Shown here: piece by piece, positions 6,615 through 53,782 of the stretch
How positions within the stretch are numbered: position 1 is the first letter of the stretch
Layout: every line of letters begins with the position of its first letter
NCBI GenBank assembly: GCA_034435555.1
Contig: DAOTXC010000006.1
Span: forward strand, 1,435 to 65,434
Direction of reading: 5' to 3'
Length of the DNA: 64,000 nucleotides
Origin: Anaerolineae bacterium
Lineage (GTDB): Bacteria; Chloroflexota; Anaerolineae; B4-G1; SLSP01
Position numbers and translations under genes: made by a program
Notes under the pieces: generated by a model
What the model saw: only the letters and a program-made list of their open reading frames with translations
Told to the model about the DNA's origin: nothing
The model's database searches: none

Positions 6615-6640
6615 GATGTCCTCCTGTATGAGTCAGCGAA

Positions 6641-7702
6641 TCAACGAGTCGGCGAGCGGTCACGGCTCAGGTAGAGCAGGAGCAGGAGCGTGGCTGCGCC
6701 CAGGATGCCCAGCGCGGCGAGTTTGTAGAGCCGCGAGGAGAGCAGGAGCGCCATGACGCCAAAGAGCGCGCAGAAGCCCCAGTAGCAGAAGACGATGGTG
6801 CGCGTCGAGAGGCCCGCGTCTTGCAAGCGGAAGTGCAGGTGGCGGCGATCTCCCTGGCCCGCGCGCTCCCCGTGACGGATGCGATCCAAAATCGTCCAGG
6901 CCACATCCACGATGGGCAGCCCCATCACCAGCAATACCGTCGCCACGCGCCCGCCTGCGATCAGCCCCAGCGCGCTGAGCAGGTAGCCGAGCAGGAAGGA
7001 GCCATTGCTGCCCATGAAGATGCGCGCCGGGTGGACATTGAAGACGAGGAAGCCCAGCGAAGCGCCCAACAACGCGATGGCCTGCGGCGCGACGCTGTAT
7101 TGCCCCTCGCGGAGCATGTGCCAGGCCAGCACCGCCGCCAGAATCGCCGCGACGCCGGCGGCAAGGCCGTCCAGCCCATCGAGCCAGTTCACGGTGACGA
7201 TCATCCCGGTGATCCAGAAGAGGCTGAGCGGCACGTAGAGCCAGACGGGCAGCACAACCAGGGTGTTGGTGAAGGGATTATTGAAGCGCTCCAGGATGAT
7301 CAGCGCGGCCACGGCGATAATCGCGGCGACGAAGTAGCCGACGTACTGCATCCAGGGGGGCAGATCGAAGCGGTCATCGAGGAAACCGAAGATGAACATC
7401 CACGCGCCGCCGAGCGCCAGCCCCCAGAAGCGCCGCACTTCGTTGGGATCGGCGGTGGGGATGGGCAGCAGTGCGGTCACCAGCAGCCCGCCGAAGAAGC
7501 CCGTCGCGATCCCCACCCCGCCGAGCCGCGAGATGCGCCCCTGATGCTTGCGCCGCCCACCGGGCGTATCAGCCAGGCCCCAACGCAGCCCCAACCGGCC
7601 CGCCAGCGGGGTGACGAGCAGCGCCAGCAGGCAGGCCGTCACGCCCACGGCCAGATAACGCGGCCCGTAGCCCTCCCACATAGCGGCAGCTACGCCCTGC
7701 AC
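6641..7702 (-). CDS. glycosyltransferase family 4, MraY/WecA-like polyprenyl-phosphate sugar-1-phosphate transferase
   Basis: Multi-TM protein with FLDDRFDL and NWLDGLDGLAAG motifs typical of the MraY/WecA family. Start uncertain: GTG 7702 or ATG 7681. Confidence 0.7.
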   Translation of the reverse strand: MQGVAAAMWEGYGPRYLAVGVTACLLALLVTPLAGRLGLRWGLADTPGGRRKHQGRISRLGGVGIATGFFGGLLVTALLPIPTADPNEVRRFWGLALGGAWMFIFGFLDDRFDLPPWMQYVGYFVAAIIAVAALIILERFNNPFTNTLVVLPVWLYVPLSLFWITGMIVTVNWLDGLDGLAAGVAAILAAVLAWHMLREGQYSVAPQAIALLGASLGFLVFNVHPARIFMGSNGSFLLGYLLSALGLIAGGRVATVLLVMGLPIVDVAWTILDRIRHGERAGQGDRRHLHFRLQDAGLSTRTIVFCYWGFCALFGVMALLLSSRLYKLAALGILGAATLLLLLYLSRDRSPTR

Positions 7703-11873: not shown

Positions 11874-12025
11874 CGGTGCCTCTAGCCCTAGTATAATCGG
11901 GTCAGCAAATGAGGCAACTGGCCTATGATTGACAGTTTCGCTCAAAGGTGTAGAGTTGACAGCGGTAATGGGTAATGGGTGATAAAGTAGCCCATCACCC
12001 GTCATTCATATTCTGGAGGCATATC

Positions 12026-18724: not shown

Positions 18725-18867
18725 AAATACTTGAGCAGGTATTGGACGCAGATTCGCGCTGATTTTCGCTGATTTTAAGAATTATCTGCGTGAATCTGCG
18801 TCCTGATACTCTAACGAAACGGGGCGTGCTTGCAAGCATGCCCCGTCCTCATTGCCCGTTTGATACG

Positions 18868-24368: not shown

Positions 24369-27300
24369 ATGTCCCTCGCTGAAACGCTGATCGTGACGCT
24401 TGGCCGTTCAATCGCCAATGCCCTGGTCAAACGCTGGCTGAGTAAGGAGCCGGCTCAGACTCTCACCAGTAATCTTATTGACCTGGCGGCCAAAGAGGGG
24501 CAACGTCGCTTCAAGGGGCATCAGGAACTCCAGCGGGTGGAGCAGCTGGGCGAACACATCGCCGAGCAATTGCGCCCCCTGGTAGAGAACTTCCGCCTGC
24601 TGCCCAACGAACGCGAGGCGCTTATTTTCGAGGTGGCAACCACGCTGAAGGAGGCCGAAATCTCCGCCGAACAACTCCTCGCGCTGCAACTGGATCATAA
24701 AGCGCTGGCGCGTCGCCTGCGCAAGGCCCGCCCGGAAGCGACCCTGACGCTATCTGCCGCACAAACGGAACACTATGAGCAATTGTTAGACCAGGCCGCC
24801 CTCGCCATCCTCAAAATCAGCGCCGAGTTCCCCAGCTATCAACGGCTGCTGGATACCCGCCAACTCCAGGAGCACGCGGCACTGATCGAGGTGGTCAACG
24901 CCATCCTCTATCGCCCCGCCGGGGAGGATGCGCAATTCCGCAACGCCTATCAGCGGCAAATCCAGCGCAAGCTGGAGCGCGCCGAGGAATCGGGCGCACC
25001 ACGCCTGGAAGAACTCAGCAAAGATCAGAGCCTGAGCGTGGCCTATGTGGAGCTCAAAGTTACCTACCCAACCGCTGAGGACAGGGATGCACCCCCGCAA
25101 GCGGCGGACTTTCTGTCGCACGCCGACCGGCGCGAGGGCCACCCCACAGAGCGGACTTGCGCCGCCAGCGAACTGCTTGCCGATACCCGGCGGCTGGTGC
25201 TCCGGGGCGAGGCTGGTTCCGGCAAGACCACTCTGCTGCAATGGCTTGCACTGCGCGCTGCCCACGGTGATTTTCCCAAACAGATGGCGAATTGGAACGA
25301 TCACGTTCCTTTTCTCATCCGCCTGCGGGAATATGTGAATGCCGACTTCCCCACGCCGGAGCAATTTGTCGAGAAACTGACCTCCACCATCGCGGGAACG
25401 ATGCCACACGGCTGGGTCCACCGGCAACTGGAAGCCGGCAAAGCCCTGATTCTAGTGGATGGCGTGGACGAGCTGCCAGAGGCTCAACGGCCCGCCATGT
25501 TGGAACGTTTGCAAGACCTGTTGGAGACCTATCCCCTGGCTCGTTACATCGTGACCTCCCGCCCGCCCGCACTCAAAGCGGAACGCTGGCCCGAATGGAA
25601 CGACTGGATCGCGGGCGCAGGCTTTACCGAGGCGGCGCTCCAACCTATGAGCCAGGCGCAGTACGAGGCTTTTATTGCCCGCTGGTACCAGGCGCTACCC
25701 GAGAATACCGCGCAGCGTGCGGAAGGCGCTGCGCACCTCCAACGCCTCTTACGCCAGCGCCCGTCCCTGCGCCGGCTGGCGACCAACCCGCTCCTCTGCG
25801 CCTTGCTCTGTGCGCTCCACAAAAAGCGTGGCGATAACCTGCCCACGGTGCGGCTGCAGCTCTACCGAGAGAGCGTCGAGATACTGTTGGAAAGTCGAGA
25901 TACCAAACGCGGCGTGCCAGTGAACGCAGATTACCCAAAACTAAGCCTGGATCAACAACTGGCGCTGATGCGGAGCTTTGCGGGCTATCTGCTGCGCAAC
26001 GGGTACACCGACATAGACATAGCGCAGGCGGACCAACATTTTGCCAACCGGCTGGCCTTTATGAGCCTCCCCCCGGAAGTGACCGGCGAGCGCGTGCGTC
26101 GCTTCTTCGTCGAGCGGACCAACCTGCTGCACGAGCCGGTTGTGGGGCGGGTGGATTTCCGCCATCGCACCTTTCTGGAATACCTCGCTGCCGACCAGAT
26201 TGTGGAAGACGACGAATTTGGGCTGTTGAAAACACATACCAACGATGATCAATGGCGCGAAGTGGTGATTTTGGCCGCCGGGCTGGCCCGCCGCAACGAA
26301 AGCGAGGACTTGCTCACATGGTTACTGGAGCAAGGTCCCCTAGGCAGCCTCCTGGCAGTCGCCTGCCTGGAAACTGTGGTGGAGCTCTCCCCCGCCGTGC
26401 GCGAGGCGGTGCTAACCCGCGCGCGAGAACTGCTTCCACCGCAGGATAGTGACCAGGTGACGCTCTATGCCGCCGCCGGGCCGTCACTGGTGCCGCTGCT
26501 CGCGCCAGATCCAGCCCACGATGCCCAAGCGCGCCTCCGCTGCATTGAGGTGCTGGGGCGCATCGGCGGCGAGGCCGCCCGGCAACAATTGGCCCGCTAT
26601 GCCCAGGATTACGCGCAACGGAAAAGCGAAGAACACGATCTGCAAGAAACCCACGCCCTTGCCACGGCCTGGGCCAACTTTGACCCGGAGACCTACGCCC
26701 GCGAGGTCCTCACTTACTTGCCTGAGCTCTGGTGCGAAGGGGTGCCATTCGACAACCTCGGCCCATTCGCCACCCTCACCCAACTGCAAACACTGATTCT
26801 CAAAATTCTCCTGGTCAGCAACCTCAGCCCGCTCGCCAATCTCACCAAACTCCAGCGCCTGGCTCTCATGCACATGCCAGTTGATGATCTCACTCCACTC
26901 CGAACCCTCACTCAATTGCAACGTCTGGATCTGCTACAAACCCCGGTCAGCAATCTACGCCCGCTCTCCCCCCTCACCCAACTGCAAGCCCTAAGTCTCA
27001 TCAGCACCCAGATCAGCGATCTCCATCAGCTTGCCAACCTCACCCAACTGCAAAGCCTGGATCTCAGCGGTAGCCCGGTCAGCGACCTCAGCCCGCTCGC
27101 CAATCTCAGGCAACTGCAAAGCCTAGTTCTCGGCGGTGCCCCAGTCAGCGACCTCAGCCCACTCGCCGCCCTTACTCAACTGCAACGCCTTGATCTTGGC
27201 TACACCCGGGTCAGCGACCTCAGCCCACTTACCGACCTCACGCAACTGCAATGCCTGGATCTTGGCTACACCCGGGTCAGCGACCTCAGCCCACTTACCG

Positions 27301-27737
27301 ACCTCACACAACTGCAACACCTCGATCTCCCCAACACCCCAGTCAGCAACTTACGCCCCCTCGCCGCCCTCACCCAACTGCAACGCCTGGATCTCAAATA
27401 CACCCAGGTAAGTGACCTCAGCCCGCTTGCCGATCTTACGCAACTGCAACGCCTGGATCTCGACCGCACCCAAGTCAGCGACCTCAGCCCACTTACCGAC
27501 CTCACACAACTGCAACGCCTGGATCTCGAAGGCACCCAAGTCAGCGACCTCAGCTCACTCACTGCCCTCACCCAACTGCATAGTCTAGCTCTCCGCCACA
27601 CCCAAGTCAGCAACCTACGCCCGCTGGCAGCGCTGCCGGCCCTGCGCTATGTGCTTGTAGACAAGCACATAGATATCACCCCTCTTCGCCACCGTCACGA
27701 GCTCCAAATTACTTACGAATTGCGTGAGTATAGATGA
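24369..27737 (+). CDS. NACHT-family STAND NTPase with C-terminal leucine-rich repeats (bacterial NLR-like protein)
   Basis: GGAGG RBS 6 nt before ATG 24369. N-terminal helical domain of about 270 aa. NACHT motifs present: Walker A GEAGSGKTTLL, Walker B KALILVDGVDE, YIVTSRP and NPLLCALLCAL. At least 14 tandem 22-aa LRRs (LTQLQRLDLxxTxVSDLSPL). Confidence 0.85.
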   Translation: MSLAETLIVTLGRSIANALVKRWLSKEPAQTLTSNLIDLAAKEGQRRFKGHQELQRVEQLGEHIAEQLRPLVENFRLLPNEREALIFEVATTLKEAEISAEQLLALQLDHKALARRLRKARPEATLTLSAAQTEHYEQLLDQAALAILKISAEFPSYQRLLDTRQLQEHAALIEVVNAILYRPAGEDAQFRNAYQRQIQRKLERAEESGAPRLEELSKDQSLSVAYVELKVTYPTAEDRDAPPQAADFLSHADRREGHPTERTCAASELLADTRRLVLRGEAGSGKTTLLQWLALRAAHGDFPKQMANWNDHVPFLIRLREYVNADFPTPEQFVEKLTSTIAGTMPHGWVHRQLEAGKALILVDGVDELPEAQRPAMLERLQDLLETYPLARYIVTSRPPALKAERWPEWNDWIAGAGFTEAALQPMSQAQYEAFIARWYQALPENTAQRAEGAAHLQRLLRQRPSLRRLATNPLLCALLCALHKKRGDNLPTVRLQLYRESVEILLESRDTKRGVPVNADYPKLSLDQQLALMRSFAGYLLRNGYTDIDIAQADQHFANRLAFMSLPPEVTGERVRRFFVERTNLLHEPVVGRVDFRHRTFLEYLAADQIVEDDEFGLLKTHTNDDQWREVVILAAGLARRNESEDLLTWLLEQGPLGSLLAVACLETVVELSPAVREAVLTRARELLPPQDSDQVTLYAAAGPSLVPLLAPDPAHDAQARLRCIEVLGRIGGEAARQQLARYAQDYAQRKSEEHDLQETHALATAWANFDPETYAREVLTYLPELWCEGVPFDNLGPFATLTQLQTLILKILLVSNLSPLANLTKLQRLALMHMPVDDLTPLRTLTQLQRLDLLQTPVSNLRPLSPLTQLQALSLISTQISDLHQLANLTQLQSLDLSGSPVSDLSPLANLRQLQSLVLGGAPVSDLSPLAALTQLQRLDLGYTRVSDLSPLTDLTQLQCLDLGYTRVSDLSPLTDLTQLQHLDLPNTPVSNLRPLAALTQLQRLDLKYTQVSDLSPLADLTQLQRLDLDRTQVSDLSPLTDLTQLQRLDLEGTQVSDLSSLTALTQLHSLALRHTQVSNLRPLAALPALRYVLVDKHIDITPLRHRHELQITYELREYR
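26775..27650 (+). repeat. 66-bp tandem DNA repeats encoding the LRR array
   Basis: Near-identical 66-nt units (...cagcgacctcagcccacttaccgacctcac(a/g)caactgcaacgcctggatct...) are visible directly in the sequence. Confidence 0.8.
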
Positions 27738-27837: not shown

Positions 27838-27865
27838 TTGACACACGCCCCGTTGCGGCTAAAAT
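27838..27865 (+). promoter_or_regulatory. sigma70-like promoter TTGACA-16-TAAAAT upstream of 27921
   Basis: ttgacacacgccccgttgcggctaaaat. Confidence 0.45.
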
Positions 27866-27920
27866 AAAGCCATTAATTCGCTGACTCGTTGACTCGCTGA
27901 TTCGCACAAAGGAGCAATCT

Positions 27921-30902
27921 ATGAAAATAACCTTTACCCTCAATGGCACACAACGTGAGTTCGATACGCACCCCCGCGAGACCCTCTTCGCGCTGCTGCG
28001 CCGGGCCGGACTGCGCAGCCTCAAATTCGGCAGCGAAGATGGCACGGATGGCTACAGCACCGTCCTCATTGATGGGCATCCGCGCAGCGCCACCATCACG
28101 CTCGCGGCCCAGGTTGCGGGGAAAGAGATTCTCACCCTTGAAGGGCTGGGCGGCCCCCAGAAGCGCGGTTGGAAGGGCAGCGCGGCGCTGCACCCGCTCC
28201 AGCGCGCCTTCATCGAGACCGGCGCGATCCAGAGCGGCTACGATACGCCCGCGCTGATCCTCGCGGCCAAGGCGCTGCTCGACCGCAACCTCAACCCCAC
28301 CGAGGCCGAAGTCCGCGATAGCATCAGTGGCATCGTCTCCCGCGAGACGGGCTACACCAAGCCGGTGGAGGCGATCCTTCGCGCGGCGGCCTATCTGCGC
28401 GGCGAGGACCCCGGCCCCATCGAGGGCGGCCCCGGCAACGAGATGTTCACGATGCCGGAGGGGCTGCTCCCGCCCACCGAACCGCCCGCCCCGCTGGATA
28501 GCGCCGGGATGGGCGGCGGCACGCAGACGCGCACCCTGATCCAACCCAAGGTTATCCTCACCGAGGAGGCCGCTGCCTTCCGCGTGGTGGGGCAACCGCT
28601 CCCCAAAGTGGATGCGCCCAAACTGGCGCAGGGCAAGGCCGCCTTCGTCGCCGATTTCGAGCAGCCGGGGATGCTCTACGCGAAGGTGCTCCACAGCCCG
28701 CACGCCCACGCCCGCATCAAGGAGATTGACACCCGCGAGGCCGAGGCGCTGCCCGGCGTCCACGCCGTGCTCACCCACAAGAACGTCCCGCGCGTCGTCT
28801 ACTCCACCGCCGGGCAATCCTACCCCATCCCCGGCCCGCTGGATTACGTGAGCTTCGATGATAAGGTGCGCTACGTGGGCGACCGCGTCGCCGCCGTCGC
28901 CGCCGAAAGCCCGGAGATTGCAGCCCAGGCCGTCGAGCTCATCAAGGTGCAGTACGAGGTGCTGGAGCCGGTGCTCGACTTCCGCACCGCCAGCGATGAG
29001 GGCGCGCCCGTCATCCACGATCAGGACGACTACGTCCCCTTCGGCGAAAGCGACCCCAGCCGCAATATCGTCGCCAAAGTGCGGATTGCGCTCGGCGACA
29101 TGGACGCGACGCTGGCGGCCTCCGAGCATGTCTTCGAGACGGAAGTCATCACGCAGAAGATGAAGCACATCCCCCTGGAGCCGTGGGTCTGCCTCACCTA
29201 CTGGGACTCCGATGACCGGCTGGTGATTATGACCTCGACCCAGGTCCCCTTCCACGTGCGCCGCATCCTCGCGCCCGTGCTGGGGCTTTCGGAGGGGCAG
29301 ATTCGCGTGATCAAACCGCGCATCGGCGCAGCCTTCGGGAACAAGCAGGAGATCTACGAGGACATCGCCGCCCATCTCACCATCGCCACGGGCCGCCCAG
29401 TGCTCTTCGAGCTCACCCGCGAGGAGCAGTTCATCTACACCGTCACCCGCCACCCGATGCTCGTCCGCTTCCGCATCGGCGTGGATAAGAACGGGCGCAT
29501 GACCGCGCAGGATATGTACGCGCTGAGCGACACCGGGGCCTACGGCGGGCACGGCCTCACCGTGTTGGGCAACACCGGCCACAAGACGCTGCCGCTCTAC
29601 AACACGCCCGTCGTGCGCTTCCACGGCGATACCGTCTACACCACCCGCCCGCGCGCCGGGGCCTATCGCGGCTACGGCGTCACGCAGGGCGTCATCGCCA
29701 CCGAGACGCTCATCACCCAGGCCGCCGAGGCGCTGGGGATGGATCCGCTGGAATTCCGGCTCAAGAACATCATCGAGCCGCACACCGAGAACATCATGAG
29801 CAAGGTGTGGAGCGAGGGCCGTGAGGCGCAGGGCGAGATGATCGAGACCTGTGCGTTGCGCGAGGCGGCGAATCAGGGCGCGGCGGCTGTCGGCTGGTAC
29901 GAAAAGTACGGCAATCCCGAATGGCGCGAGATTCCCGGCAAGCCGCACCTCAAGCGCGGCATCGGCGTGGTCTTCCTGATGCAGGGGTCGGGCATTCCGC
30001 ACCTCGATATGGGCGCGGCGAGCATCAAGATGAACGACGACGGCACCTTCAACCTGCTCATGGGCGCGACCGACCTGGGCACCGGCTCGGATACCGTGCT
30101 GGCGCAGATCGCTGCCGAGGTCATCGGCTGCCGGTTGGAGGATATGATCGTCTACTCATCTGACACCGACATGACCCCGTTCGACGTGGGCGCGTATGCT
30201 TCGAGCACGACGTACATCAGCGGCGGGGCCGCCGCGCGCGCCGCCGAGCAGGTCGCCGCGCAGATCAAGGCCGTGGCCGCCGAGATGACCGGGCTGGAGC
30301 CGGAGGCACTCACGCTGCATGATAGCGCCGTCTGGACGCCCGACGGGTACAGCATCAGCTACCGCGACATCGCCATGCACTCGCTGCACCAGCACAACCA
30401 GCACCAGATCATGGGCCAGGCCTCGTTCCTCAGCCCCGTCAGCCCACCGCCGTTCGCGGCGCAGTTCGCCGAGGTGACGGTGGACACGGAGACGGGCCAG
30501 GTGACGTGCGACCGGCTGCTCATCGCGCTGGACTCCGGGCAGATCATCAACCCGCTCACCGCGAGCGGGCAGGCAGAGGGCGGCATGTTGCAGGCGCTCG
30601 GCTACGGCCTCACCGAGGAGCTCGTCTACGACGAGGAAGGGCGCACCGTCAACCCGCGCTTTGACGACTACCGCGTCTTCCGCGCCGACGAGTCGCCGCC
30701 GATGGAGACGCTCTTCATCGAGACCTTCGAGCCGAGCCACCCCGTGGGGGCCAAATCGGTCTCGGAGATCGTCGTCAATGGCGCGGCCCCGGCAGTCATC
30801 AACGCGGTCTACAACGCCACCGGCGTCATGCTCAAGGAGACGCCGCTCACCCCGGAGCGGGTCTGGCGCGCGCTCCGCGAGGCGGAACAGGTCGCGGCGT
30901 AA
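27921..30902 (+). CDS. xanthine dehydrogenase-family molybdopterin hydroxylase fused to a Cys-less CoxS-like N-terminal domain
   Basis: The N-terminus aligns motif-for-motif with [2Fe-2S] CoxS/XdhC-type subunits (…KFGSEDGTDGYSTVLIDG…HPLQRAFIETGAIQSGYDTPA…SGIVSRETGY…) but contains no cysteine. It is followed by an a/b-hammerhead and Mo-binding domains (GAAFGNK; C-terminal ...SVSEIVVNGAAPAVINAVYNATG). AGGAG RBS. Confidence 0.7.
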   Translation: MKITFTLNGTQREFDTHPRETLFALLRRAGLRSLKFGSEDGTDGYSTVLIDGHPRSATITLAAQVAGKEILTLEGLGGPQKRGWKGSAALHPLQRAFIETGAIQSGYDTPALILAAKALLDRNLNPTEAEVRDSISGIVSRETGYTKPVEAILRAAAYLRGEDPGPIEGGPGNEMFTMPEGLLPPTEPPAPLDSAGMGGGTQTRTLIQPKVILTEEAAAFRVVGQPLPKVDAPKLAQGKAAFVADFEQPGMLYAKVLHSPHAHARIKEIDTREAEALPGVHAVLTHKNVPRVVYSTAGQSYPIPGPLDYVSFDDKVRYVGDRVAAVAAESPEIAAQAVELIKVQYEVLEPVLDFRTASDEGAPVIHDQDDYVPFGESDPSRNIVAKVRIALGDMDATLAASEHVFETEVITQKMKHIPLEPWVCLTYWDSDDRLVIMTSTQVPFHVRRILAPVLGLSEGQIRVIKPRIGAAFGNKQEIYEDIAAHLTIATGRPVLFELTREEQFIYTVTRHPMLVRFRIGVDKNGRMTAQDMYALSDTGAYGGHGLTVLGNTGHKTLPLYNTPVVRFHGDTVYTTRPRAGAYRGYGVTQGVIATETLITQAAEALGMDPLEFRLKNIIEPHTENIMSKVWSEGREAQGEMIETCALREAANQGAAAVGWYEKYGNPEWREIPGKPHLKRGIGVVFLMQGSGIPHLDMGAASIKMNDDGTFNLLMGATDLGTGSDTVLAQIAAEVIGCRLEDMIVYSSDTDMTPFDVGAYASSTTYISGGAAARAAEQVAAQIKAVAAEMTGLEPEALTLHDSAVWTPDGYSISYRDIAMHSLHQHNQHQIMGQASFLSPVSPPPFAAQFAEVTVDTETGQVTCDRLLIALDSGQIINPLTASGQAEGGMLQALGYGLTEELVYDEEGRTVNPRFDDYRVFRADESPPMETLFIETFEPSHPVGAKSVSEIVVNGAAPAVINAVYNATGVMLKETPLTPERVWRALREAEQVAA

Positions 30903-30958: not shown

Positions 30959-31251
30959 TCTCGCGCTCCGGCGCAAAGGGCTTGTCACACCTCGCCCCCT
31001 GCTTCCAAGCGCCTGACAGGAGACCGCCCCTCGAGCACCCCCATCACCCATCACCCGTCCCCCTCACCCCTTCAGAAGCAAATTTAATCCGACTGTAATT
31101 CAATCTTAACCCTCCCCTGCCAGATTCCGCTTTATAATGAAACTACAGGGACAAAAAAAGTTATCCACTGCCTCGCCACGTCACTTGAACGTTCACTTGG
31201 TCAATAAGTCGAAAATTCGCTGACCCGCTGACTCGCATAGGAGGTGCGCTC

Positions 31252-34200
31252 ATGCGTAAAGGTATGCTCTTTGTAGGAACGCTAATATTGGCCGCGCTCT
31301 TGCTCGTCGCCCTGTTGGCCGGACTTGAGCGAGCCGAGGCCGCCCCCACCCTGCCCACGCCGACGGGCTGCGTCGTCGTGTCGGCCAACATCATCACCGA
31401 TACGATTTGGGACGGTGATTGTTATCTCGTGACCACCGACACGGTCGCCATCATGCCCGACGTCAGCCTTACCATCACACCCCCGCTCAGTGGAACTCTG
31501 GTGCGTTTCCAGCCCGGCGCGCAGTTGCAGGTCTTGGGCACGTTGCAAGCCCTGGGGACGGAGACCCGTCCCATCACCTTCACCTCGGCAGCCGCCACGC
31601 CCGTACCCGGCGATTGGATCGGCATCATCCTGGAAGATGACGCACAGAACGACCGGGACATCATCCGGTACGCTGTCATCGAGTACGCCCGCACGGGGGT
31701 CAAAGTCAACGACGAGGACTTCGTGGAACTCACGCACAACCGCTTCCGCTACAACGGCGGGCCAGGCCCCCGCGATGGCGCGATCAGTGGGGACGCCGAC
31801 AACGCCACCATCACGCACAACGTCATCCACGACTGCCGCAACGGGCTGTCACTCAACGAATCCTTCAACAACGTGATCAGTCACAACAGGCTCTATAACA
31901 TCGAGGCGTATGGCATCCGCCTCTTCGCCGCCACGACCTCCGGCGGCTCGTCCAACCAGATCACCCACAACGAGATTCACGATTGCCAGCTGGCGGCGCT
32001 GCGCCTGGAGATCGGTTCGCAGAACGTGGTGCTGAGCAACACGCTCTATCTCAACGCTGGCAGCGCGGCCATCTTCGTGGATCAGGCGCTCAGCCGCTTC
32101 GAGGGAAATCTGGTCATCGCCAACGGCGCGCCCGGTTACGGCGGCGCGGTCGTGGTGACGGACACCTCCACGCTCTCGGCGATCAGCCGCAACATCATCC
32201 ACGACCCGCACGGCGACGCGCTCGCCTACGATGCCAGCGCGCCATCGCCGGTTCTCGCCACGGCGGGGAACGCCCTCTGCGCGCCGGCGGGCTACGCCTT
32301 GAACAACGGAGCAGGCAACGTGAGCGCGCCCACGAACTGGTGGGGCGCGAACGATCCGGCGGCGGCCATCTTCGGCCCGGTGGACGCCAGCAATCCCATC
32401 ACGCTGGCGCTCGCGGCGGAGGCGATCACGCTCCCCGCCGACGGCCACGCGACGGCGCTGCTCACCGTGACCTTCCGCGCCCCGGATGGGACGATTGTCC
32501 CTGCGCTGCCGCCCGGCGCGCCGGGCTTCGCCCCCGACCCGCGCGAGATCGCGCTGACGACGAGCCTGGGGACGCTCAGCGCGCCCGCTGTCGCCATTGA
32601 TGCGCAGGGCGAGGCCCTCTTCGCACTGACCGCGCCCACCACAGCGGGCACGGCGGTCGTCACTGCGACGGGCTTCTGCGGCTACCCGGTCACGGCAACC
32701 GTGACCTTCGCCGCGACCGACATCGCCATCACCAAGACCACCGCCATCACCGAAGCGGCGCTAGGGGAACCGATCACCTACACGCTGCACTACGCCAACC
32801 TGAGCGGCAGTCTCGCCAGCCATGTCCTCCTCACCGACACGCTGCCCACCGGCACGCACTACATCGCCGATAGCAGCGGGCTTTCGGTCACGTTGCTGCC
32901 GAGCGAGGTGGTCTGGGCGCTGCCCGATCTCGCGCCCTCGGCGACGCACACCTTCACGCTGGTGCTCGGCATCGAGGAAGCGCCCGAACTCTGCGACGCC
33001 ACGCTGGTCAACACGGCGACGCTCACCACCGCCACGGAGGACACCGATCCAAGCAACAACCTCGCCGTCGCACCGCCTGTCGCCATCACTTGCCCCGGCT
33101 ACGTGGACCTGGTCGTGGTGAAGGATGACAATGTCGGCCCGCTGACCGCCTATCACGCGACGGACACGCCACTAGGACAATGGCTCCACAGCGTGCGGCC
33201 CGTCACGGCCCACCGCGAGTTCGTCTACGAGGGCGATTTCGTCACCTATACGATTGCGCTCTTCAACGATGGGCCGGAGACCGCCACCGGGATCATCCTC
33301 ACCGAGACGCTGCCGCTCCACACGACCTACGTGGAGCGGGGCTTCGGCTGGATCGCCGTGGATACGCGCACCTACACCCTCGCCGCGCCCCCGCTCGCGC
33401 CCGGCGAGGGATTCCTCACCTACATGGTCGTGCAGGTGGGCGAAACCCTGCCCGAAGGCGTAAACAACCTGGTCAACCTGGTCTGCGCCTTCGCCGCCGA
33501 GCCGGAGCTCGACCCGAACGATAATTGCAACTACGAGGATACGCCCGTCGTGCGGCGCGCGCTGCGGGTCTCCAAATCGGCCCCGATGTGCATCTCGCCG
33601 GGGCAGGCCTTCTACTACACGCCGCGCTACACGAACACCAACAGCCTCACCGGCTACACCAACGTCCCCCTCACCGACACGCTGCCGGCCTACGTGAGCT
33701 ACGCGGGATCGCCTGTGGGGAATTGGAGCTGCGCCGGCGGCGTCTGCACCGCCACCCTCCCGGAGATCCCCGCCAACACGAGCGCCCGTGGGCCGGTGCT
33801 GCCCGTCCAGCTCAGCGCCGCCTATCCCCTCACCGGCACAGGGCTGATTACCAACACCATCGAGATCAGCGGCGGGTTCCGCTTCGTGCTGGTCTCCACC
33901 GTGGATCTCGGCCCCGATCTGGTTGTGGTGAAGAACGACAACGTCGGGCCGACGCCGCGCGCGACGGCCTTCCTCCAGCAGCAGATCGAGCGGCAGCTCT
34001 ACGGCGCGCCGCGCGCGACCAGCGCCGCAGTGCGGGAGTACGTCCGTCCCGGCGAGATCATCAGCTACACGATCCTCTACGTCAACAGCGGCGTGCTGAC
34101 GGCGACCGAGGTGGTGCTCACCGAGCATCTGCCCCAGTACACGCGCTACCTGGGCGGCGGCTGGGACGATGCGGGCGGCGGGCGTTACACGCTCGCTGTG

Positions 34201-35403
34201 GGCGATCTGGCCCCTGGTCAGGGCGGCGAGGCAGTCTTTATGGTCGAGGTGATTGACCCCTTCCCGCTCGGCGTGGATCGGGTGCTCAACCGCGTGAACA
34301 TCGCCGGCGCGGAGGTGGAATGTGATACCACGAACAACACCTCCTACGACGATACGCCGGTGCAGACCGCGACGCGGCTCTACGTCGCCGCGCGCGACTC
34401 GGAAACGATTGAGGTCTTTGCTGGGACCAATTTCGCCTCGCTGGGTGCATTCGACGCCGGCCCCATCCCCTTCGGCATGGCGGCCTGGGATGGGCAGCTC
34501 TACGTCGCCAACTTCGAGGATGCCACCTTCACCAGCACCGTCTCCAGCTTCGATCTGACCACCCACGCGCCCATCCACACCGTGGATGTGGGACGGCATC
34601 CCACCTACCTGGCGGCGCTGAACGGGCGCATCTACGTCACCAACCACAGCGGCGGCGAGGGCATCACCGTTATTGATGCAGCAACCGGCGCGGTCATCGC
34701 GCGGCTCAGCCCGAACCAGCCGGGCGTCTACGACTTCGGCTTCTTCGGCATCACCGCCGACACAGCTCGGAATCGCATCTACACCACCAAGCGCTACATG
34801 GGCGGCATGGGGCTGTGGGTCATCACGCCCACAGCCAGCGGCTACACCTTCGAGCAAGCCATCGCCACGGACGCCACGCCGTACGCTGTGGCCTATAATC
34901 CCAACAACGATCGCATCTACATCACCTTCGCCCAGCTGAACGAGCTGCGCGTCTACGACGCCGAGACGCTGACCCAGGTCGCCGCCTACGCGACCGGCGT
35001 GCAAGACCCCAACGATCCCGGCTATGGCGGGCAAGGGTTGGCGGTGATGGGCGAGTGCGCCTACGTCAGCAACTACGCGGCAGGCTCAATCACCGTGGTG
35101 GCCGAAGGGCCATGCTGGGAAGGAGAACGGCCCGAGGCAGGACCAGCGCCCGGCGTCCCCCTCAGCGGCGATCACCGCCTTTACCTGCCGCTGGTGCTGC
35201 GCGGGATGCAAACGTATCCCAACATCCGCACCGTGCCGGTGGAAGGCCGCCCGAAGGGGCTGGCTGCGCAGGATGGGCTGATCCTCGTCACCTTGCCGGA
35301 GGAAAATCGCGTCGTGGTGCTTGATGCGCAATTGCTCCAGATCGTCCGGGAGATTCTCGTGGCAGGAGAACATCCCCACACACTCTTGTTGACCGAGCCG
35401 TAA
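31252..35403 (+). CDS. large secreted surface protein: right-handed beta-helix (PbH1) + DUF11 repeats + YVTN-type beta-propeller
   Basis: Signal peptide MRKGMLFVGTLILAALLLVALLAGLERAEA. Repeated (I/V)THNxIHDC beta-helix turns. DLVVVK(D/N)DNVGP DUF11 starts. C-terminal LYVANF…IYVTNHSGG YVTN repeats. 1383 aa. Confidence 0.65.
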   Translation: MRKGMLFVGTLILAALLLVALLAGLERAEAAPTLPTPTGCVVVSANIITDTIWDGDCYLVTTDTVAIMPDVSLTITPPLSGTLVRFQPGAQLQVLGTLQALGTETRPITFTSAAATPVPGDWIGIILEDDAQNDRDIIRYAVIEYARTGVKVNDEDFVELTHNRFRYNGGPGPRDGAISGDADNATITHNVIHDCRNGLSLNESFNNVISHNRLYNIEAYGIRLFAATTSGGSSNQITHNEIHDCQLAALRLEIGSQNVVLSNTLYLNAGSAAIFVDQALSRFEGNLVIANGAPGYGGAVVVTDTSTLSAISRNIIHDPHGDALAYDASAPSPVLATAGNALCAPAGYALNNGAGNVSAPTNWWGANDPAAAIFGPVDASNPITLALAAEAITLPADGHATALLTVTFRAPDGTIVPALPPGAPGFAPDPREIALTTSLGTLSAPAVAIDAQGEALFALTAPTTAGTAVVTATGFCGYPVTATVTFAATDIAITKTTAITEAALGEPITYTLHYANLSGSLASHVLLTDTLPTGTHYIADSSGLSVTLLPSEVVWALPDLAPSATHTFTLVLGIEEAPELCDATLVNTATLTTATEDTDPSNNLAVAPPVAITCPGYVDLVVVKDDNVGPLTAYHATDTPLGQWLHSVRPVTAHREFVYEGDFVTYTIALFNDGPETATGIILTETLPLHTTYVERGFGWIAVDTRTYTLAAPPLAPGEGFLTYMVVQVGETLPEGVNNLVNLVCAFAAEPELDPNDNCNYEDTPVVRRALRVSKSAPMCISPGQAFYYTPRYTNTNSLTGYTNVPLTDTLPAYVSYAGSPVGNWSCAGGVCTATLPEIPANTSARGPVLPVQLSAAYPLTGTGLITNTIEISGGFRFVLVSTVDLGPDLVVVKNDNVGPTPRATAFLQQQIERQLYGAPRATSAAVREYVRPGEIISYTILYVNSGVLTATEVVLTEHLPQYTRYLGGGWDDAGGGRYTLAVGDLAPGQGGEAVFMVEVIDPFPLGVDRVLNRVNIAGAEVECDTTNNTSYDDTPVQTATRLYVAARDSETIEVFAGTNFASLGAFDAGPIPFGMAAWDGQLYVANFEDATFTSTVSSFDLTTHAPIHTVDVGRHPTYLAALNGRIYVTNHSGGEGITVIDAATGAVIARLSPNQPGVYDFGFFGITADTARNRIYTTKRYMGGMGLWVITPTASGYTFEQAIATDATPYAVAYNPNNDRIYITFAQLNELRVYDAETLTQVAAYATGVQDPNDPGYGGQGLAVMGECAYVSNYAAGSITVVAEGPCWEGERPEAGPAPGVPLSGDHRLYLPLVLRGMQTYPNIRTVPVEGRPKGLAAQDGLILVTLPEENRVVVLDAQLLQIVREILVAGEHPHTLLLTEP

Positions 35404-50922: not shown

Positions 50923-53742
50923 GTGTCCGAGATTACCCTGCTGGAATACGAAACCGAAGTTGATGAGCTCATCGAAGAGGCGCGTTACCTCGAGGCGCTG
51001 GCGCATATCCGGCACATCCTCAGCCAGTACCCCCGCTACATCGGGGCCTACTACCTGCTGGGCAAAACGATGCTGGAAGCCGACCTGCCCGAGCTCGCCA
51101 TGGATATGTTCCGGCGCGTTCTTTCTGCCGACCCGGAGCACCTGCTGGCGCGGATCGGGCTGGGCATGGCCCACCTCCAGCGCGAGAACATCAATGGCGC
51201 AATCTGGAATCTCGAACGGGCCTTCGAGCTCAACCCTAGCAACCAGGACATCGCCGAAGAACTGCGCCGTCTTTACGGTCGCCGCGACGGTCTGGAGCCG
51301 CCACACGCGCCCCTCACCCAGGCCGGCCTGGCGCGGCTCTACCTCCGTGGCAATCTCTACAACCGCGCGGTCGAAGTATTGCAGAATCTCATCGTCGAGG
51401 AGCCTCAACGCGCCGACCTGCACCTCGCGCTCGCCGAGGCCTACTGGCGCGATGACCAAATCGTCCAGGCCTCCGACGCCTGCCAGCAGACCCTCGACCA
51501 CCTCAAATACTGCCTCAAGGCGAACCTGATCCTCGGCAACCTGTGGCTCGATAGCGGGCAGGAAGAGGGCGAACGCTATCTCAAGCGCGCCCAAGAGACC
51601 GATCCCACCAACCAAATGGCGCAGGAGCTCTTCGGCAGCCAGTCGGCCCTCAAACCACAGACCGTCTCGCTGGAACGGCTCACCTATCAGCCCGAAGCCA
51701 TCCCCGTTGACCGCGAATCCGCGTGGTTCAAACACCTGGAGAACACCTCGGTTTCTATCGGCATCTCCGAGGCGATGCCCGAAATGACCGACAGCGAGAT
51801 GCGCCTTGTGGATATCACCGCCGCTCTCGAAGCCCAGATCGAAATCCCCGACTGGCTCCGCGACATGGGGCCGCTGGATGGGGGCGATACCGACAGCTGG
51901 ATGGACGAGTTGGCTGCCATCGAGGAGACCGCCGCGCCACAGGATGACACCTTCTGGCTCGATGAGGCCGAAGCCCCCGCCGCAGCCGTAGCGGAAGAGG
52001 AAGGCATCCCCGATTGGATGCGCGAGCTCGAGCCTGCCGCCGAGGCCGAACCCTCCGCGCTTCTCGATGAAGATATCCCTGATTGGATGCAGGACCTGGA
52101 ACCTAGCCAGGATGCCAAAGCCAAGGCTGCCTGGATGGATGAGCTCACCGCCGCCGAAGAGGCCGTTGAGGATGAAAAAGCGCCCGACTGGCTCGGCGAG
52201 CTCCAGGCCCCCGATGAGACCGAAGCCGACGCCATGTTCGGCTGGGACTCCTTCGCTACCGAGGAAGAAGAGGTCGCTGAAGAGGAAGCGGGAGAACTCC
52301 CCGATTGGCTGCGCGAACTCGAACCCGCCGCTGAAGAAGCCATCGCCGACGAGGACGAAGAGGTCCCCGATTGGCTCAGCGAACTCCAGGTCCCCGACGA
52401 GGCCGCCGCGCTCCCCGAAGCGCCCGCCGCTGCCACCGAAGCCGACGCCATGTTCGGCTGGGACTCCTTCGCTGCTGAGGCTGAGGAGGAGGAAGTCGCC
52501 GAAGAGGAAGCAGGAGAACTCCCCGATTGGCTGCGCGAACTCGAACCCGCCGCTGAAGAAGCCGTCGCCGACGAGGACGAAGAGGTCCCCGATTGGCTCC
52601 AAGAAATCTCTGAGCCAGACACAATAACTGAAGAAGAAGAAGAACTGCCCGACTGGTTACAGGAACTCGCACCACCCACCGATGAGGAAGTCCTCGCGAC
52701 CGTGGATGAAGAGGAGCTACCAACCTGGTTGGATGAAATCCAGATCCCGGAAGAGCTAACCCTCCCCGAGCCTGAGCCTGAGCCGGAACCCGCCGCCCCC
52801 GACCTCGAGGGCGACATGCTCTCCGGCGACGACGCCCTCGCCTGGCTCCAGAGCCTCATCGCCGGCAAGGAAGACGAACTCCGCGCCCAGGTCGAGCAGG
52901 AGAGCGCCGCCCGCACCGCCGAAATCCTCGGCCGCAAGCCCGCAGCCCCCGCTCCCGAACCGGAGCCGGAGACCCCGGTCGCCGTGGCGGAACCCGAACC
53001 CGAACCCGAACCGGAGCCGGAACCCGTCGCCCCCGACCTCGAGGGCGACATGCTCTCCGGCGACGATGCCCTTGCCTGGCTCCAGAGCCTCACCGCCGGC
53101 AAGGAAGACGAACTCCGCGCCCAGGTCGAGCAGGAAAGCGCTGCTCGCACCGCCGAAATCCTCGGCCGCAAGCCCGCCGCTCCTGCCCCAGAACCGGAGC
53201 CGGAACCGCCGGTCGCCATTGCTGAACCAGAAGCAGAAGAGGACTTCTTCGGCTGGTCCACACTCAGCGAGGAAATGCCCGAACCTCCCGCGGTGCAACC
53301 GCAAGAACCCAAACCGCTCACCTCCTTTGGGTTCACAGATTTTGAAGAGGAAGCCCAGGCCGAGGTCGTTGAAGTCGAGCCGGAACCCGAACCAGAGCCA
53401 GAGCCAGAGATTGAAGCTCCCGCACCCGCAGCCGCGCCGGAGACCGAACTGGACGCAGCCCGCGCGCATGTCGCGGAGCACGAGGACGATTATCGCGCGC
53501 GCATCGCACTGGCCCGCGCCCTTTGGCAGGCGGACGAAATCACCGAGGCGCTGGAACATTACAGCGTCCTGATTCGGGTCAACCAGCGGATGGAAGATGT
53601 CATGGCCGATTTGAAGCGGTACGCCGCCGACCAGCCCCGCAACACCCCACTCTTGCGCACCCTGGGCGATGCCTACATGAAGAACGGCCTGGTCAACAAG
53701 GCGCTCGATGCCTACAAGCGAGCGATGCAATCCTATCGCTGA
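50923..53742 (+). CDS. TPR-repeat protein with long acidic PDW(L/M)-repeat low-complexity core
   Basis: AGGAGG RBS 6 nt before GTG 50923. N- and C-terminal TPR helices. About 10 (I/L)PDWL(R/Q)EL(E/Q)P motifs, PEPEPEPEP runs and two ~80-aa near-identical segments. Confidence 0.6.
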   Translation: MSEITLLEYETEVDELIEEARYLEALAHIRHILSQYPRYIGAYYLLGKTMLEADLPELAMDMFRRVLSADPEHLLARIGLGMAHLQRENINGAIWNLERAFELNPSNQDIAEELRRLYGRRDGLEPPHAPLTQAGLARLYLRGNLYNRAVEVLQNLIVEEPQRADLHLALAEAYWRDDQIVQASDACQQTLDHLKYCLKANLILGNLWLDSGQEEGERYLKRAQETDPTNQMAQELFGSQSALKPQTVSLERLTYQPEAIPVDRESAWFKHLENTSVSIGISEAMPEMTDSEMRLVDITAALEAQIEIPDWLRDMGPLDGGDTDSWMDELAAIEETAAPQDDTFWLDEAEAPAAAVAEEEGIPDWMRELEPAAEAEPSALLDEDIPDWMQDLEPSQDAKAKAAWMDELTAAEEAVEDEKAPDWLGELQAPDETEADAMFGWDSFATEEEEVAEEEAGELPDWLRELEPAAEEAIADEDEEVPDWLSELQVPDEAAALPEAPAAATEADAMFGWDSFAAEAEEEEVAEEEAGELPDWLRELEPAAEEAVADEDEEVPDWLQEISEPDTITEEEEELPDWLQELAPPTDEEVLATVDEEELPTWLDEIQIPEELTLPEPEPEPEPAAPDLEGDMLSGDDALAWLQSLIAGKEDELRAQVEQESAARTAEILGRKPAAPAPEPEPETPVAVAEPEPEPEPEPEPVAPDLEGDMLSGDDALAWLQSLTAGKEDELRAQVEQESAARTAEILGRKPAAPAPEPEPEPPVAIAEPEAEEDFFGWSTLSEEMPEPPAVQPQEPKPLTSFGFTDFEEEAQAEVVEVEPEPEPEPEPEIEAPAPAAAPETELDAARAHVAEHEDDYRARIALARALWQADEITEALEHYSVLIRVNQRMEDVMADLKRYAADQPRNTPLLRTLGDAYMKNGLVNKALDAYKRAMQSYR
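51840..53420 (+). repeat. in-frame tandem and dispersed DNA repeats encoding the acidic repeat region
   Basis: The ~230-bp duplications at ~52795..53030 and ~53030..53260 are near-identical at the DNA level, as are shorter repeats around 52230..52600. Confidence 0.7.
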
Positions 53743-53782
53743 TTCGCCGATTCGCTGACTCGATTACTCATAGGAGGTCATC

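Follow-up and report, generated by a model that had tools for sequence, protein, structure and literature searches.

Octamer repeat arrays directly upstream of ribosome-binding sites in an Anaerolineae genome belong to a dispersed family of short tandem repeats

Four tandem arrays of an octamer with the consensus YTCGYYGA stand directly before the ribosome-binding sites (RBS) of four genes in a 64,000-nucleotide stretch of an Anaerolineae genome (the window). These arrays belong to a satellite-type family of short tandem repeats, dispersed and built on the unit TTCGCTGA, that is characteristic of Chloroflexota, especially Anaerolineae. In this species, each copy lies between a transcription start or a preceding stop codon and the Shine-Dalgarno (SD) sequence, and would thus be transcribed as a 5' leader or an intercistronic spacer. 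We read the arrays, with confidence that is about evenly balanced, as a satellite that selection has confined to untranslated leaders, where it would be passive.

RESULTS

Octamer arrays in the window

All four sequences that a first-pass annotation had quoted from these loci were found where it had placed them. In register, arrays A to D (Table 1) each comprise two to three tandem TTCGCTGA-type units followed by one degenerate unit (YTCRCAYA-like) and then by a strong SD sequence, GGAGG or AAGGAG, with the start codon 5 to 7 nt further on. The orientation is sense to the downstream gene in 4/4 cases, and the gap between the last full unit and the start codon is 20 nt for arrays A and B, 24 nt for array C, and 18 nt for array D. 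According to Pfam annotation, the genes downstream of the four arrays share no common pathway. Homologues of the DHDPS protein of the window carry the names of Anaerolineae or Chloroflexota.

Table 1. Octamer arrays, neighboring features, and related short tandem repeats. Positions are those of the window unless a locus in another assembly is named.
Feature	Position	Strand	Description
Array D	6656-6633; 6625..6656 with degenerate unit	-	Three full units, CTCGCCGA CTCGTTGA TTCGCTGA, then degenerate ctcataca-GGAGG-5-ATG; GGAGG 6624-6620; ATG of DHDPS-family gene 6614
GGTAATG x2.4	11964-11980		Reverse complement of the CCCATCA CCCGTCA doublet, just upstream of it
CCCATCA CCCGTCA doublet	11991..12004	+	Ends 21 nt before ATG 12026; followed by GGAGG
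Hairpin between convergent genes	18745..18809	+	-34.8 kcal/mol, z = -8.4
Predicted sigma-70-type promoter	27838..27865	+	TTGACA-16-TAAAAT, 11/12 matches; just 5' of array A
Array A	27877-27900 (units 27877-27884, 27885-27892, 27893-27900); up to 27908 with degenerate unit	+	Three full units, TTCGCTGA CTCGTTGA CTCGCTGA, then degenerate fourth ttcgcaca-AAGGAG-6-ATG; ATG 27921
SD of gene A	27909..27914	+	AAGGAG, 8 nt past last full unit
Gene after array A	27921-30902	+	Fused 2Fe-2S/molybdopterin XDH-family enzyme (Pfam)
CCCATCA x4.4 tract	31040-31069		183 nt upstream of gene B
Array B	31216-31231; 31216..31239 with degenerate unit	+	Two full units, TTCGCTGA CCCGCTGA, then degenerate ctcgcata-GGAGG-7-ATG; abuts GGAGG 31240-31244; ATG 31252
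Gene after array B	31252-35403	+	DUF11/beta-helix surface protein (Pfam)
Array C	53735-53758; 53735..53766 with degenerate unit	+	Three full units, ATCGCTGA TTCGCCGA TTCGCTGA, then degenerate ctcgatta and ctcata-GGAGG-5-TTG; GGAGG 53773-53777; ndk TTG start 53783
GT4-DHDPS junction	L168		(GACTACAA)x3.5
GT4-DHDPS junction	L170/L171		CCCTACT/CGCTACTT-type units
GT4-DHDPS junction	L166		Reverse CGAATNNN units past stop, and TTCGCCGA TTCACCAT TTCGCAAT before SD
POR leader	L166/L167		GACTATCC GACTACAG GACTAAG

The first base of array A lies 11 nt past the -10 box of a near-consensus promoter, and in the transcript predicted from this promoter the array would span about +5 to +32. Judged by this predicted start site, little of the 5' leader of the XDH-family Mo-enzyme gene lies outside array A. 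The spacers between cistrons at arrays C and D, of 40 nt and 26 nt, respectively, are taken up by the arrays. The first unit of array C holds the TGA stop (53740-53742) of a TPR gene (50923-53742), and the second unit of array D holds the TGA stop (6643-6641) of a GT4 glycosyltransferase gene (6641-7702). Both stops agree with the open reading frame (ORF) list and confirm the earlier observation that the motif contains the stop codon of the preceding gene at the ndk and DapA-like loci.

These positions bear on the proposal, made in the first-pass annotation, that the motif defines a dedicated promoter or operator class, with the tandem 8-bp repeats binding a transcription factor or belonging to a special promoter. 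Some regulators do typically bind direct repeats that precede genes, and array A does adjoin a promoter. However, array A lies past both the -10 box and the start site predicted from it, arrays C and D reach into the 3' end of the preceding coding sequence within operons whose genes are only 26 to 40 nt apart, and the same arrays occur within ORFs elsewhere. With a period of 8 bp, consecutive sites would also not face the same side of the helix. We regard a DNA-level role as very unlikely, and the proposal was set aside.

Just upstream of the promoter of array A, positions 24369 to 27737 encode a NACHT-NTPase protein that has an NNH1 domain at its N terminus and a long run of 22-amino-acid leucine-rich repeats (66-nt period, 12 copies).

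A further copy of the motif had been reported at 18750 to 18775, between convergent genes. This sequence is a 10-nt repeat, (CGCTGATTTT)x2 at 18757-18776, located in the loop and arm of a strong, terminator-like hairpin (Table 1) that is probably a bidirectional terminator. At best, the copy is a degenerate relative of the octamer repeat, and it was dropped as a member of the leader class.

Frequency and placement of arrays compared to chance

Whether the motif is more frequent than expected depends on the unit that is counted. Counted singly, the 8-mer CTGAYTCG shows no enrichment in the window (7 observed versus 5.6 expected), whereas loci with at least two exact units in tandem numbered 4; 300 dinucleotide shuffles gave 0.02 such loci on average and never more than 1. 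The earlier expectation of a frequency above chance thus holds in the window for tandem arrays and fails for the single octamer. A bias in position toward gene starts, also anticipated, was found for 4/4 arrays in the window, which end 18 to 24 nt before a start codon. When positions were drawn at random from the 6 kb of non-coding sequence of the window, in either orientation, the chance of an array falling in the observed zone was P = 0.072 for each array and 2.8e-5 for all four.

A fifth array was found outside the window, in ~8 kb of the same species to its left (L163). Array E (L163 4177-4192, sequence TTCGCTGACTCGCTGA) is in the sense orientation; 13 nt separate it from AAGGAG, and 26 nt from the GTG start of a POR/TPP enzyme gene. 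This arrangement was predicted from the pattern first noticed in the window, and array E brings the tally to 5/5. Across the same-species sample, which totals ~77 kb, every array is in the sense orientation, has two to three units, and ends 18 to 26 nt before a start codon. A chance similarity of C/T-rich sequence near SD sites would fit the unremarkable count of the single 8-mer, but it is refuted by the tandem arrays and by the predicted fifth site, as well as by the hundreds of arrays in related genomes, and is hardly credible.

The same species was present in three to four other metagenome assemblies at ~99.6% identity. Array C was unchanged in three other assemblies, array D was unchanged in L163/L164, and no copy-number variation between strains was found for these two arrays (four assemblies, ~99.6% identity). 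The TPR gene upstream of ndk carries a 234-nt tandem duplication (window 52765-53232), at which the same-species contig L001 is ~230 nt shorter, indicating a one-copy difference between strains.

Each unit junction reads GAYTC, which raised the idea of a link to the CcrM/HinfI site, GANTC, yet the window contains 134 such sites versus 149 +/- 13, neither depleted nor enriched, and this idea was abandoned.

Predicted RNA properties of the leaders

The first-pass annotation had also suggested a translation-initiation enhancer. In a structural version of this reading, the tract, whatever its sequence, would keep the RBS single-stranded or would give the 30S an unstructured landing pad (a standby site). 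Enhancers act in the zone upstream of the SD sequence, and the arrays occupy that zone. Leaders A, C, and D are less stable than dinucleotide shuffles (z = +0.96, +2.28, and +1.95, respectively), three-unit arrays are nearly free of self-structure (-1.7 kcal/mol), and relatives have different units at the same position, all of which is consistent with a structural role. In A, B, and D, however, native arrays did not raise the predicted probability of an unpaired RBS (-16 to +3) above that obtained with shuffled arrays; the gain was only marginal in C, and in E the native array gave a lower value. In addition, longer arrays fold (-24 kcal/mol for 12 units), and a strong SD sequence is already present in all five genes.

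The part of the suggestion that stands is the bias in position and orientation relative to the RBS, by which an enhancer is possible, and the part that lacks support is improved accessibility, the one version put to the test. The idea that the arrays keep the RBS open found no support in silico, where native arrays performed no better than shuffled or inverted ones, and a structural enhancer appears improbable.

Searches of the window for recognized elements returned 0 matches to Rfam covariance models at the gathering score and no tRNA in a tRNA scan. Palindromic structure of the REP, BIME, or MITE type was absent from leaders A to D, which fold no better than shuffles.

The octamer family in other genomes

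A scan for three exact units in one genome per species (GTDB) matched at least 120 stretches. Among the matches listed, 72/120 were from Chloroflexota, mostly from Anaerolineae metagenome-assembled genomes (MAGs), and the variants TTCGTTGA and CTCGCCGA occurred in Saprospiraceae and other Bacteroidota, Latescibacterota, Acidobacteriaceae, and Burkholderia. Arrays in these listed matches were 3 to 17 units long, often with other 7- to 8-nt repeats alongside.

The distribution of the family is patchy. In 567 kb of Mfd-relative loci (63 to 71% identity and lower), no arrays were found except the same-species copy, and ndk-Mfd synteny was not kept. A relative with 69% DHDPS identity (L170/L171) had four to five forward arrays in 14 to 17 kb, each located 21 to 37 nt before a start codon. 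The possibility of a tiny dispersed repeat family, one of the three explanations offered in the first-pass annotation, is borne out by the occurrence of the same array in many Chloroflexota, before other genes in a related species, and in reverse within ORFs and past stop codons elsewhere.

The arrays are also assembly breakpoints, with one end of many MAG contigs falling inside an octamer array (L016, L021, L029, L048, L050, L064, L082, and L115). A practical consequence is that octamer arrays break metagenome assemblies.

Three species of Burkholderia (L020, L054, and L097) carry (TTCGCTGA)n with 5, 7, and 5 units at an orthologous locus. The arrays follow the same flank (cgatcgtYctgtacc), showing that copy number changes between species outside Chloroflexota.

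Phage was considered as a vector and rejected, with only 13 stretches found in a viral collection. Within the searchable literature, a string search for the octamer array found no paper, and no work linking Anaerolineae with intergenic tandem repeats was found.

Orientation of arrays and copies inside genes

The forward strand of an octamer array presents TGA every 8 nt, reaching frames 0, 2, and 1, whereas the reverse strand, (TCAGCGAA)n, is stop-free in all frames and encodes the cyclic peptide SANQRISE. The three-frame stop holds for arrays of at least three units and fails for array B, and families built on other units (e.g., CCCATCA and GACTACAA) do not have it. At Chloroflexota loci selected by pattern, arrays abutting an SD sequence and start codon were sense in 12 cases versus antisense in 4, while overall 33 were antisense versus 14 sense to flanking genes. 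This antisense excess can be attributed to the TGA every 8 nt on the forward strand and the stop-free reverse strand.

Within called ORFs of other Chloroflexota, the arrays were reverse in 39/39 cases, and the host ORFs are real by Pfam, encoding LeuA, MutS, the XDH Mo-subunit, AccC, and a PMT-family (PMT_2; GT39-like) glycosyltransferase. Comparison of XDH with an orthologue lacking the array revealed a clean 16-amino-acid (48-nt) in-frame insertion. Reverse arrays also join neighboring genes into one stop-free ORF, creating apparent AnmK-MurQ and CoxM-CoxS fusions (L003 2896-5064; L022 1156-2706; L119), and between two MAGs the length of the CoxM-CoxS linker differs by exactly 8 amino acids, the equivalent of 3 units. 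Gene calls in these other loci were made with a heuristic GC3-based caller, which merged ORFs across reverse arrays; many of these merged ORFs proved to be real. By these crude gene calls, ~15 reverse arrays start 1 to 16 nt past a stop codon. Forward and reverse arrays can be present in the same genome (e.g., L023, L034, and L069), and the window contains no coding or reverse copies.

One in-frame insert in an XDH Mo-subunit (L122 1664-1730) consists of (CGAATCAG)x3.5 followed by the heptamer (CAATTCG)x4, a composite suggesting that different short-unit arrays travel or grow together.

A peptide search with the short query (SESANQRI)5 returned 6 weak matches. Two 60-amino-acid "hypothetical proteins" labelled Escherichia coli (P0001 and P0006) match the SESANQRI-repeat peptide at 100% and 80% identity, respectively, and may reflect contamination or an array that went unnoticed in E. 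coli assemblies. A practical effect on annotated Chloroflexota proteins is that the arrays produce apparent fusions of genes and unusual peptides of low complexity (SESANQRI).

Unit turnover at orthologous leaders

The GT4-DHDPS junction is syntenic in four relatives, each with a short tandem repeat (STR) just before the SD sequence, and the unit differs between them (Table 1). Repeats were also present in the POR leader of L166/L167, and other orthologous leaders were without such repeats. An unbiased TRF survey (period 6 to 10) of the window, L163, L166, and L168 to L170 identified 30 non-coding repeats, 14 of which end within 30 nt of a start codon, versus 4.7 expected (p = 6e-5). Placement of a short-unit repeat directly before the RBS is an architecture shared across the clade, in which units turn over rapidly and TTCGCTGA is the commonest. 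Judging from the tracts in Table 1, the heptamer CCCATCA is possibly a second family with the same architecture as the octamer arrays; the unit is also found before a PAP2 gene in a relative (L170 7150-7173).

Turnover of units bears directly on the main alternative to a satellite, in which the arrays are a post-transcriptional site. By this reading, (UUCGCUGA)2-3 at about -20 to -45 would be bound by a trans-acting factor, which could be a single-strand-binding protein such as ribosomal protein S1 or a cold-shock-domain protein, or an RNA with the complementary (UCAGCGAA)n, such as a 3' untranslated region (3'UTR) containing a reverse array. Through this factor, genes without a functional link would come under shared translational control. 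The tight position of the arrays (18 to 26 nt before the start), their strictly forward orientation in two species, the conservation of the unit sequence across distant Chloroflexota, and the coexistence of forward and reverse arrays in single genomes all agree with such a site, and similar roles have been suggested for the TAACTGA repeats (PMC4679880) and the heptamers of Nostoc (bioRxiv 10.1101/2022.06.06.494920). However, units differ at orthologous leaders and several unit families occur per genome, so that several co-evolving factors would be needed, which argues against a single factor. The lack of a common pathway among the downstream genes, the many arrays that lie within ORFs elsewhere, where a leader role is impossible, the lack of an identified candidate factor, and the absence of a reverse array from the window also weigh against this explanation, which we consider possible, if rather unlikely.

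DISCUSSION

A satellite filtered by selection

The reading we favor, a satellite passive in untranslated leaders, can be stated as a sequence of steps. Octamer arrays would arise and spread by slippage and ectopic copying, rather than as a promoter element, and the sites at which copies survive would be set by selection. Because UGA recurs every 8 nt and reaches all three frames by three units, forward copies would not persist in ORFs. Forward copies would then be left only in leaders and spacers, while the stop-free reverse copies would be tolerated in frame within genes and just past stop codons, the locations observed in other genomes. The leader tract itself would be passive, lengthening the spacer by 16 to 24 nt of weakly structured RNA. 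At arrays C and D, a frame-independent stop would end upstream translation a few nucleotides before the RBS. At most, an array may modulate translation initiation or coupling, and it would not act as a dedicated switch.

Several lines of evidence point to a satellite. The number of tandem loci far exceeds that in shuffles (4 versus 0.02), and the family is dispersed and patchy. All 39 in-ORF arrays are antisense, in hosts that are real by Pfam (among them the CoxM-CoxS and AnmK-MurQ joins), units have turned over at the orthologous GT4-DHDPS and POR leaders, and the arrays show no special RNA property, with no Rfam family and RBS accessibility equal to that of shuffled arrays. Precedents are provided by the TAACTGA repeats (PMC4679880) and the short-unit satellites of Chloroflexus (PMC6749651).

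Other observations count against a satellite that is entirely passive. In two unbiased species samples, 9/9 TTCGCTGA-type arrays were forward, which is not obviously predicted, and reverse copies are common in the non-coding DNA of other genomes. Repeats of unrelated units pile up within 30 nt of start codons (14/30 versus 4.7), and not in convergent or long intergenic regions, in which neutral DNA would be expected to build up. The retention of an STR at the same junction in four species, with a differing unit, could reflect selection for the tract itself. To our knowledge, no mechanism by which arrays of this kind spread has been described, which also counts against the satellite reading.

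A broader and more speculative idea, which we find quite doubtful, is that repeats ~20 nt before start codons represent a general convergent post-transcriptional code of filamentous bacteria (Anaerolineae, Beggiatoaceae, Nostocales, and Saprospiraceae). Forward leader arrays would be read by a single-strand-binding factor or would be paired with reverse arrays in the 3'UTRs or ORFs of other transcripts, and the arrays would be written by an as yet unknown templated-insertion activity. If such a code is real, the translation of otherwise unrelated genes would be linked.

Comparison with known repeat systems

The MIRU elements, reportedly described by Supply et al. in 1997 as units of 46 to 101 bp with small ORFs coupling translation, resemble the octamer arrays as tandem repeats in operon spacers that have one orientation and overlap the upstream stop codon. 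Octamer units are 8 nt long and without a small ORF, and by these features the arrays are not MIRUs. Rickettsia palindromic elements (RPEs), which Ogata et al. are said to have reported in 2000 as about 100- to 150-bp sequences inserted in frame in genes, offer a parallel for the tolerance of in-frame insertion in real proteins, seen here for reverse octamer arrays in other Chloroflexota. However, RPEs are palindromic and are not tandem octamers, and a coding copy is absent from the window.

The cyanobacterial STRR sequences, reportedly described by Mazel et al. in 1990, are tandem 7-nt units dispersed in non-coding DNA. STRRs are heptamers of heterocystous cyanobacteria, whereas the arrays described here are octamers in a genome with Anaerolineae- or Chloroflexota-named homologues, and they are not members of that class. 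Heptamers in Nostoc lie within 30 nt of start codons, and a regulatory role has been proposed (bioRxiv 10.1101/2022.06.06.494920). The STRR and Nostoc repeats are similar to the octamer arrays in having several unit families per genome, often located within 30 to 100 nt of starts, and in being suspected of a regulatory role. They differ in the unit, the unit length, and the phylum, and their position relative to the SD sequence is not described as fixed.

Within Chloroflexota, (GATAGRA)n in Chloroflexus aurantiacus is a dispersed short-unit satellite (Subirana & Messeguer 2019, PMC6749651), and the authors of that survey inferred a transposition-like spread of short-unit satellites. This family shares with the octamer arrays its species specificity, a single short unit at many loci, and a Chloroflexota host. 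The unit is different, and the survey gave no position or orientation relative to start codons.

The closest anatomy is that of the TAACTGA intergenic direct repeats of marine Beggiatoaceae, some Cyanobacteria, and Bacteroidetes (MacGregor 2015, PMC4679880). TAACTGA sets consist of 2 to 6 tandem copies upstream of unrelated genes, mostly forward to the nearby start, and the forward strand has stops in all three frames, so the sets overlap the ends of upstream ORFs (PMC4679880). Reverse copies lie in ORFs or directly past stop codons and are mixed with related 7- to 8-mers; the repeats are without predicted RNA structure and are patchy and lineage specific (PMC4679880). The octamer arrays share these traits. 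In both families, a short unit ending in CTGA forms tandem sets scattered before unrelated genes; the five octamer sets have 2 to 3 units and precede XDH-family, DUF11, ndk, DHDPS-family, and POR/TPP genes. Octamer arrays are forward to the start in 5/5 cases in this species and in the 4 clear cases in L170/L171, at 18 to 37 nt, and arrays C and D contain the upstream stop, with TGA in all frames. Reverse octamer copies are found in ORFs or past stops in other Chloroflexota and are absent from the window.

The two families also differ. The unit here is an octamer, YTCGYYGA, and not a heptamer, and a TAACTGA doublet with up to 2 mismatches is absent from the window. The host belongs to the Chloroflexota, a phylum not mentioned in the earlier report (PMC4679880). 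The TAACTGA repeats of BOGUAY end ~1 nt from the start, and SD sequences there are rare (PMC4679880), whereas here GGAGG or AAGGAG sits between array and start codon, and the array does not replace the SD sequence.

The octamer arrays are the counterpart of the TAACTGA and STRR heptamer repeats, and their anatomy matches that of the TAACTGA repeats almost point for point. Repeats of 7 to 8 nt before start codons have been noted for years in Beggiatoaceae, Cyanobacteria, and Bacteroidetes without explanation. The arrays described here add a fourth phylum, Chloroflexota, and an octamer unit that is forward before starts and reverse in frame within genes, together with unit turnover at orthologous leaders and a location upstream of a canonical SD sequence. 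The phenomenon looks general, and the octamer arrays offer a system for separating a selfish, selection-filtered satellite from a translation-control element.
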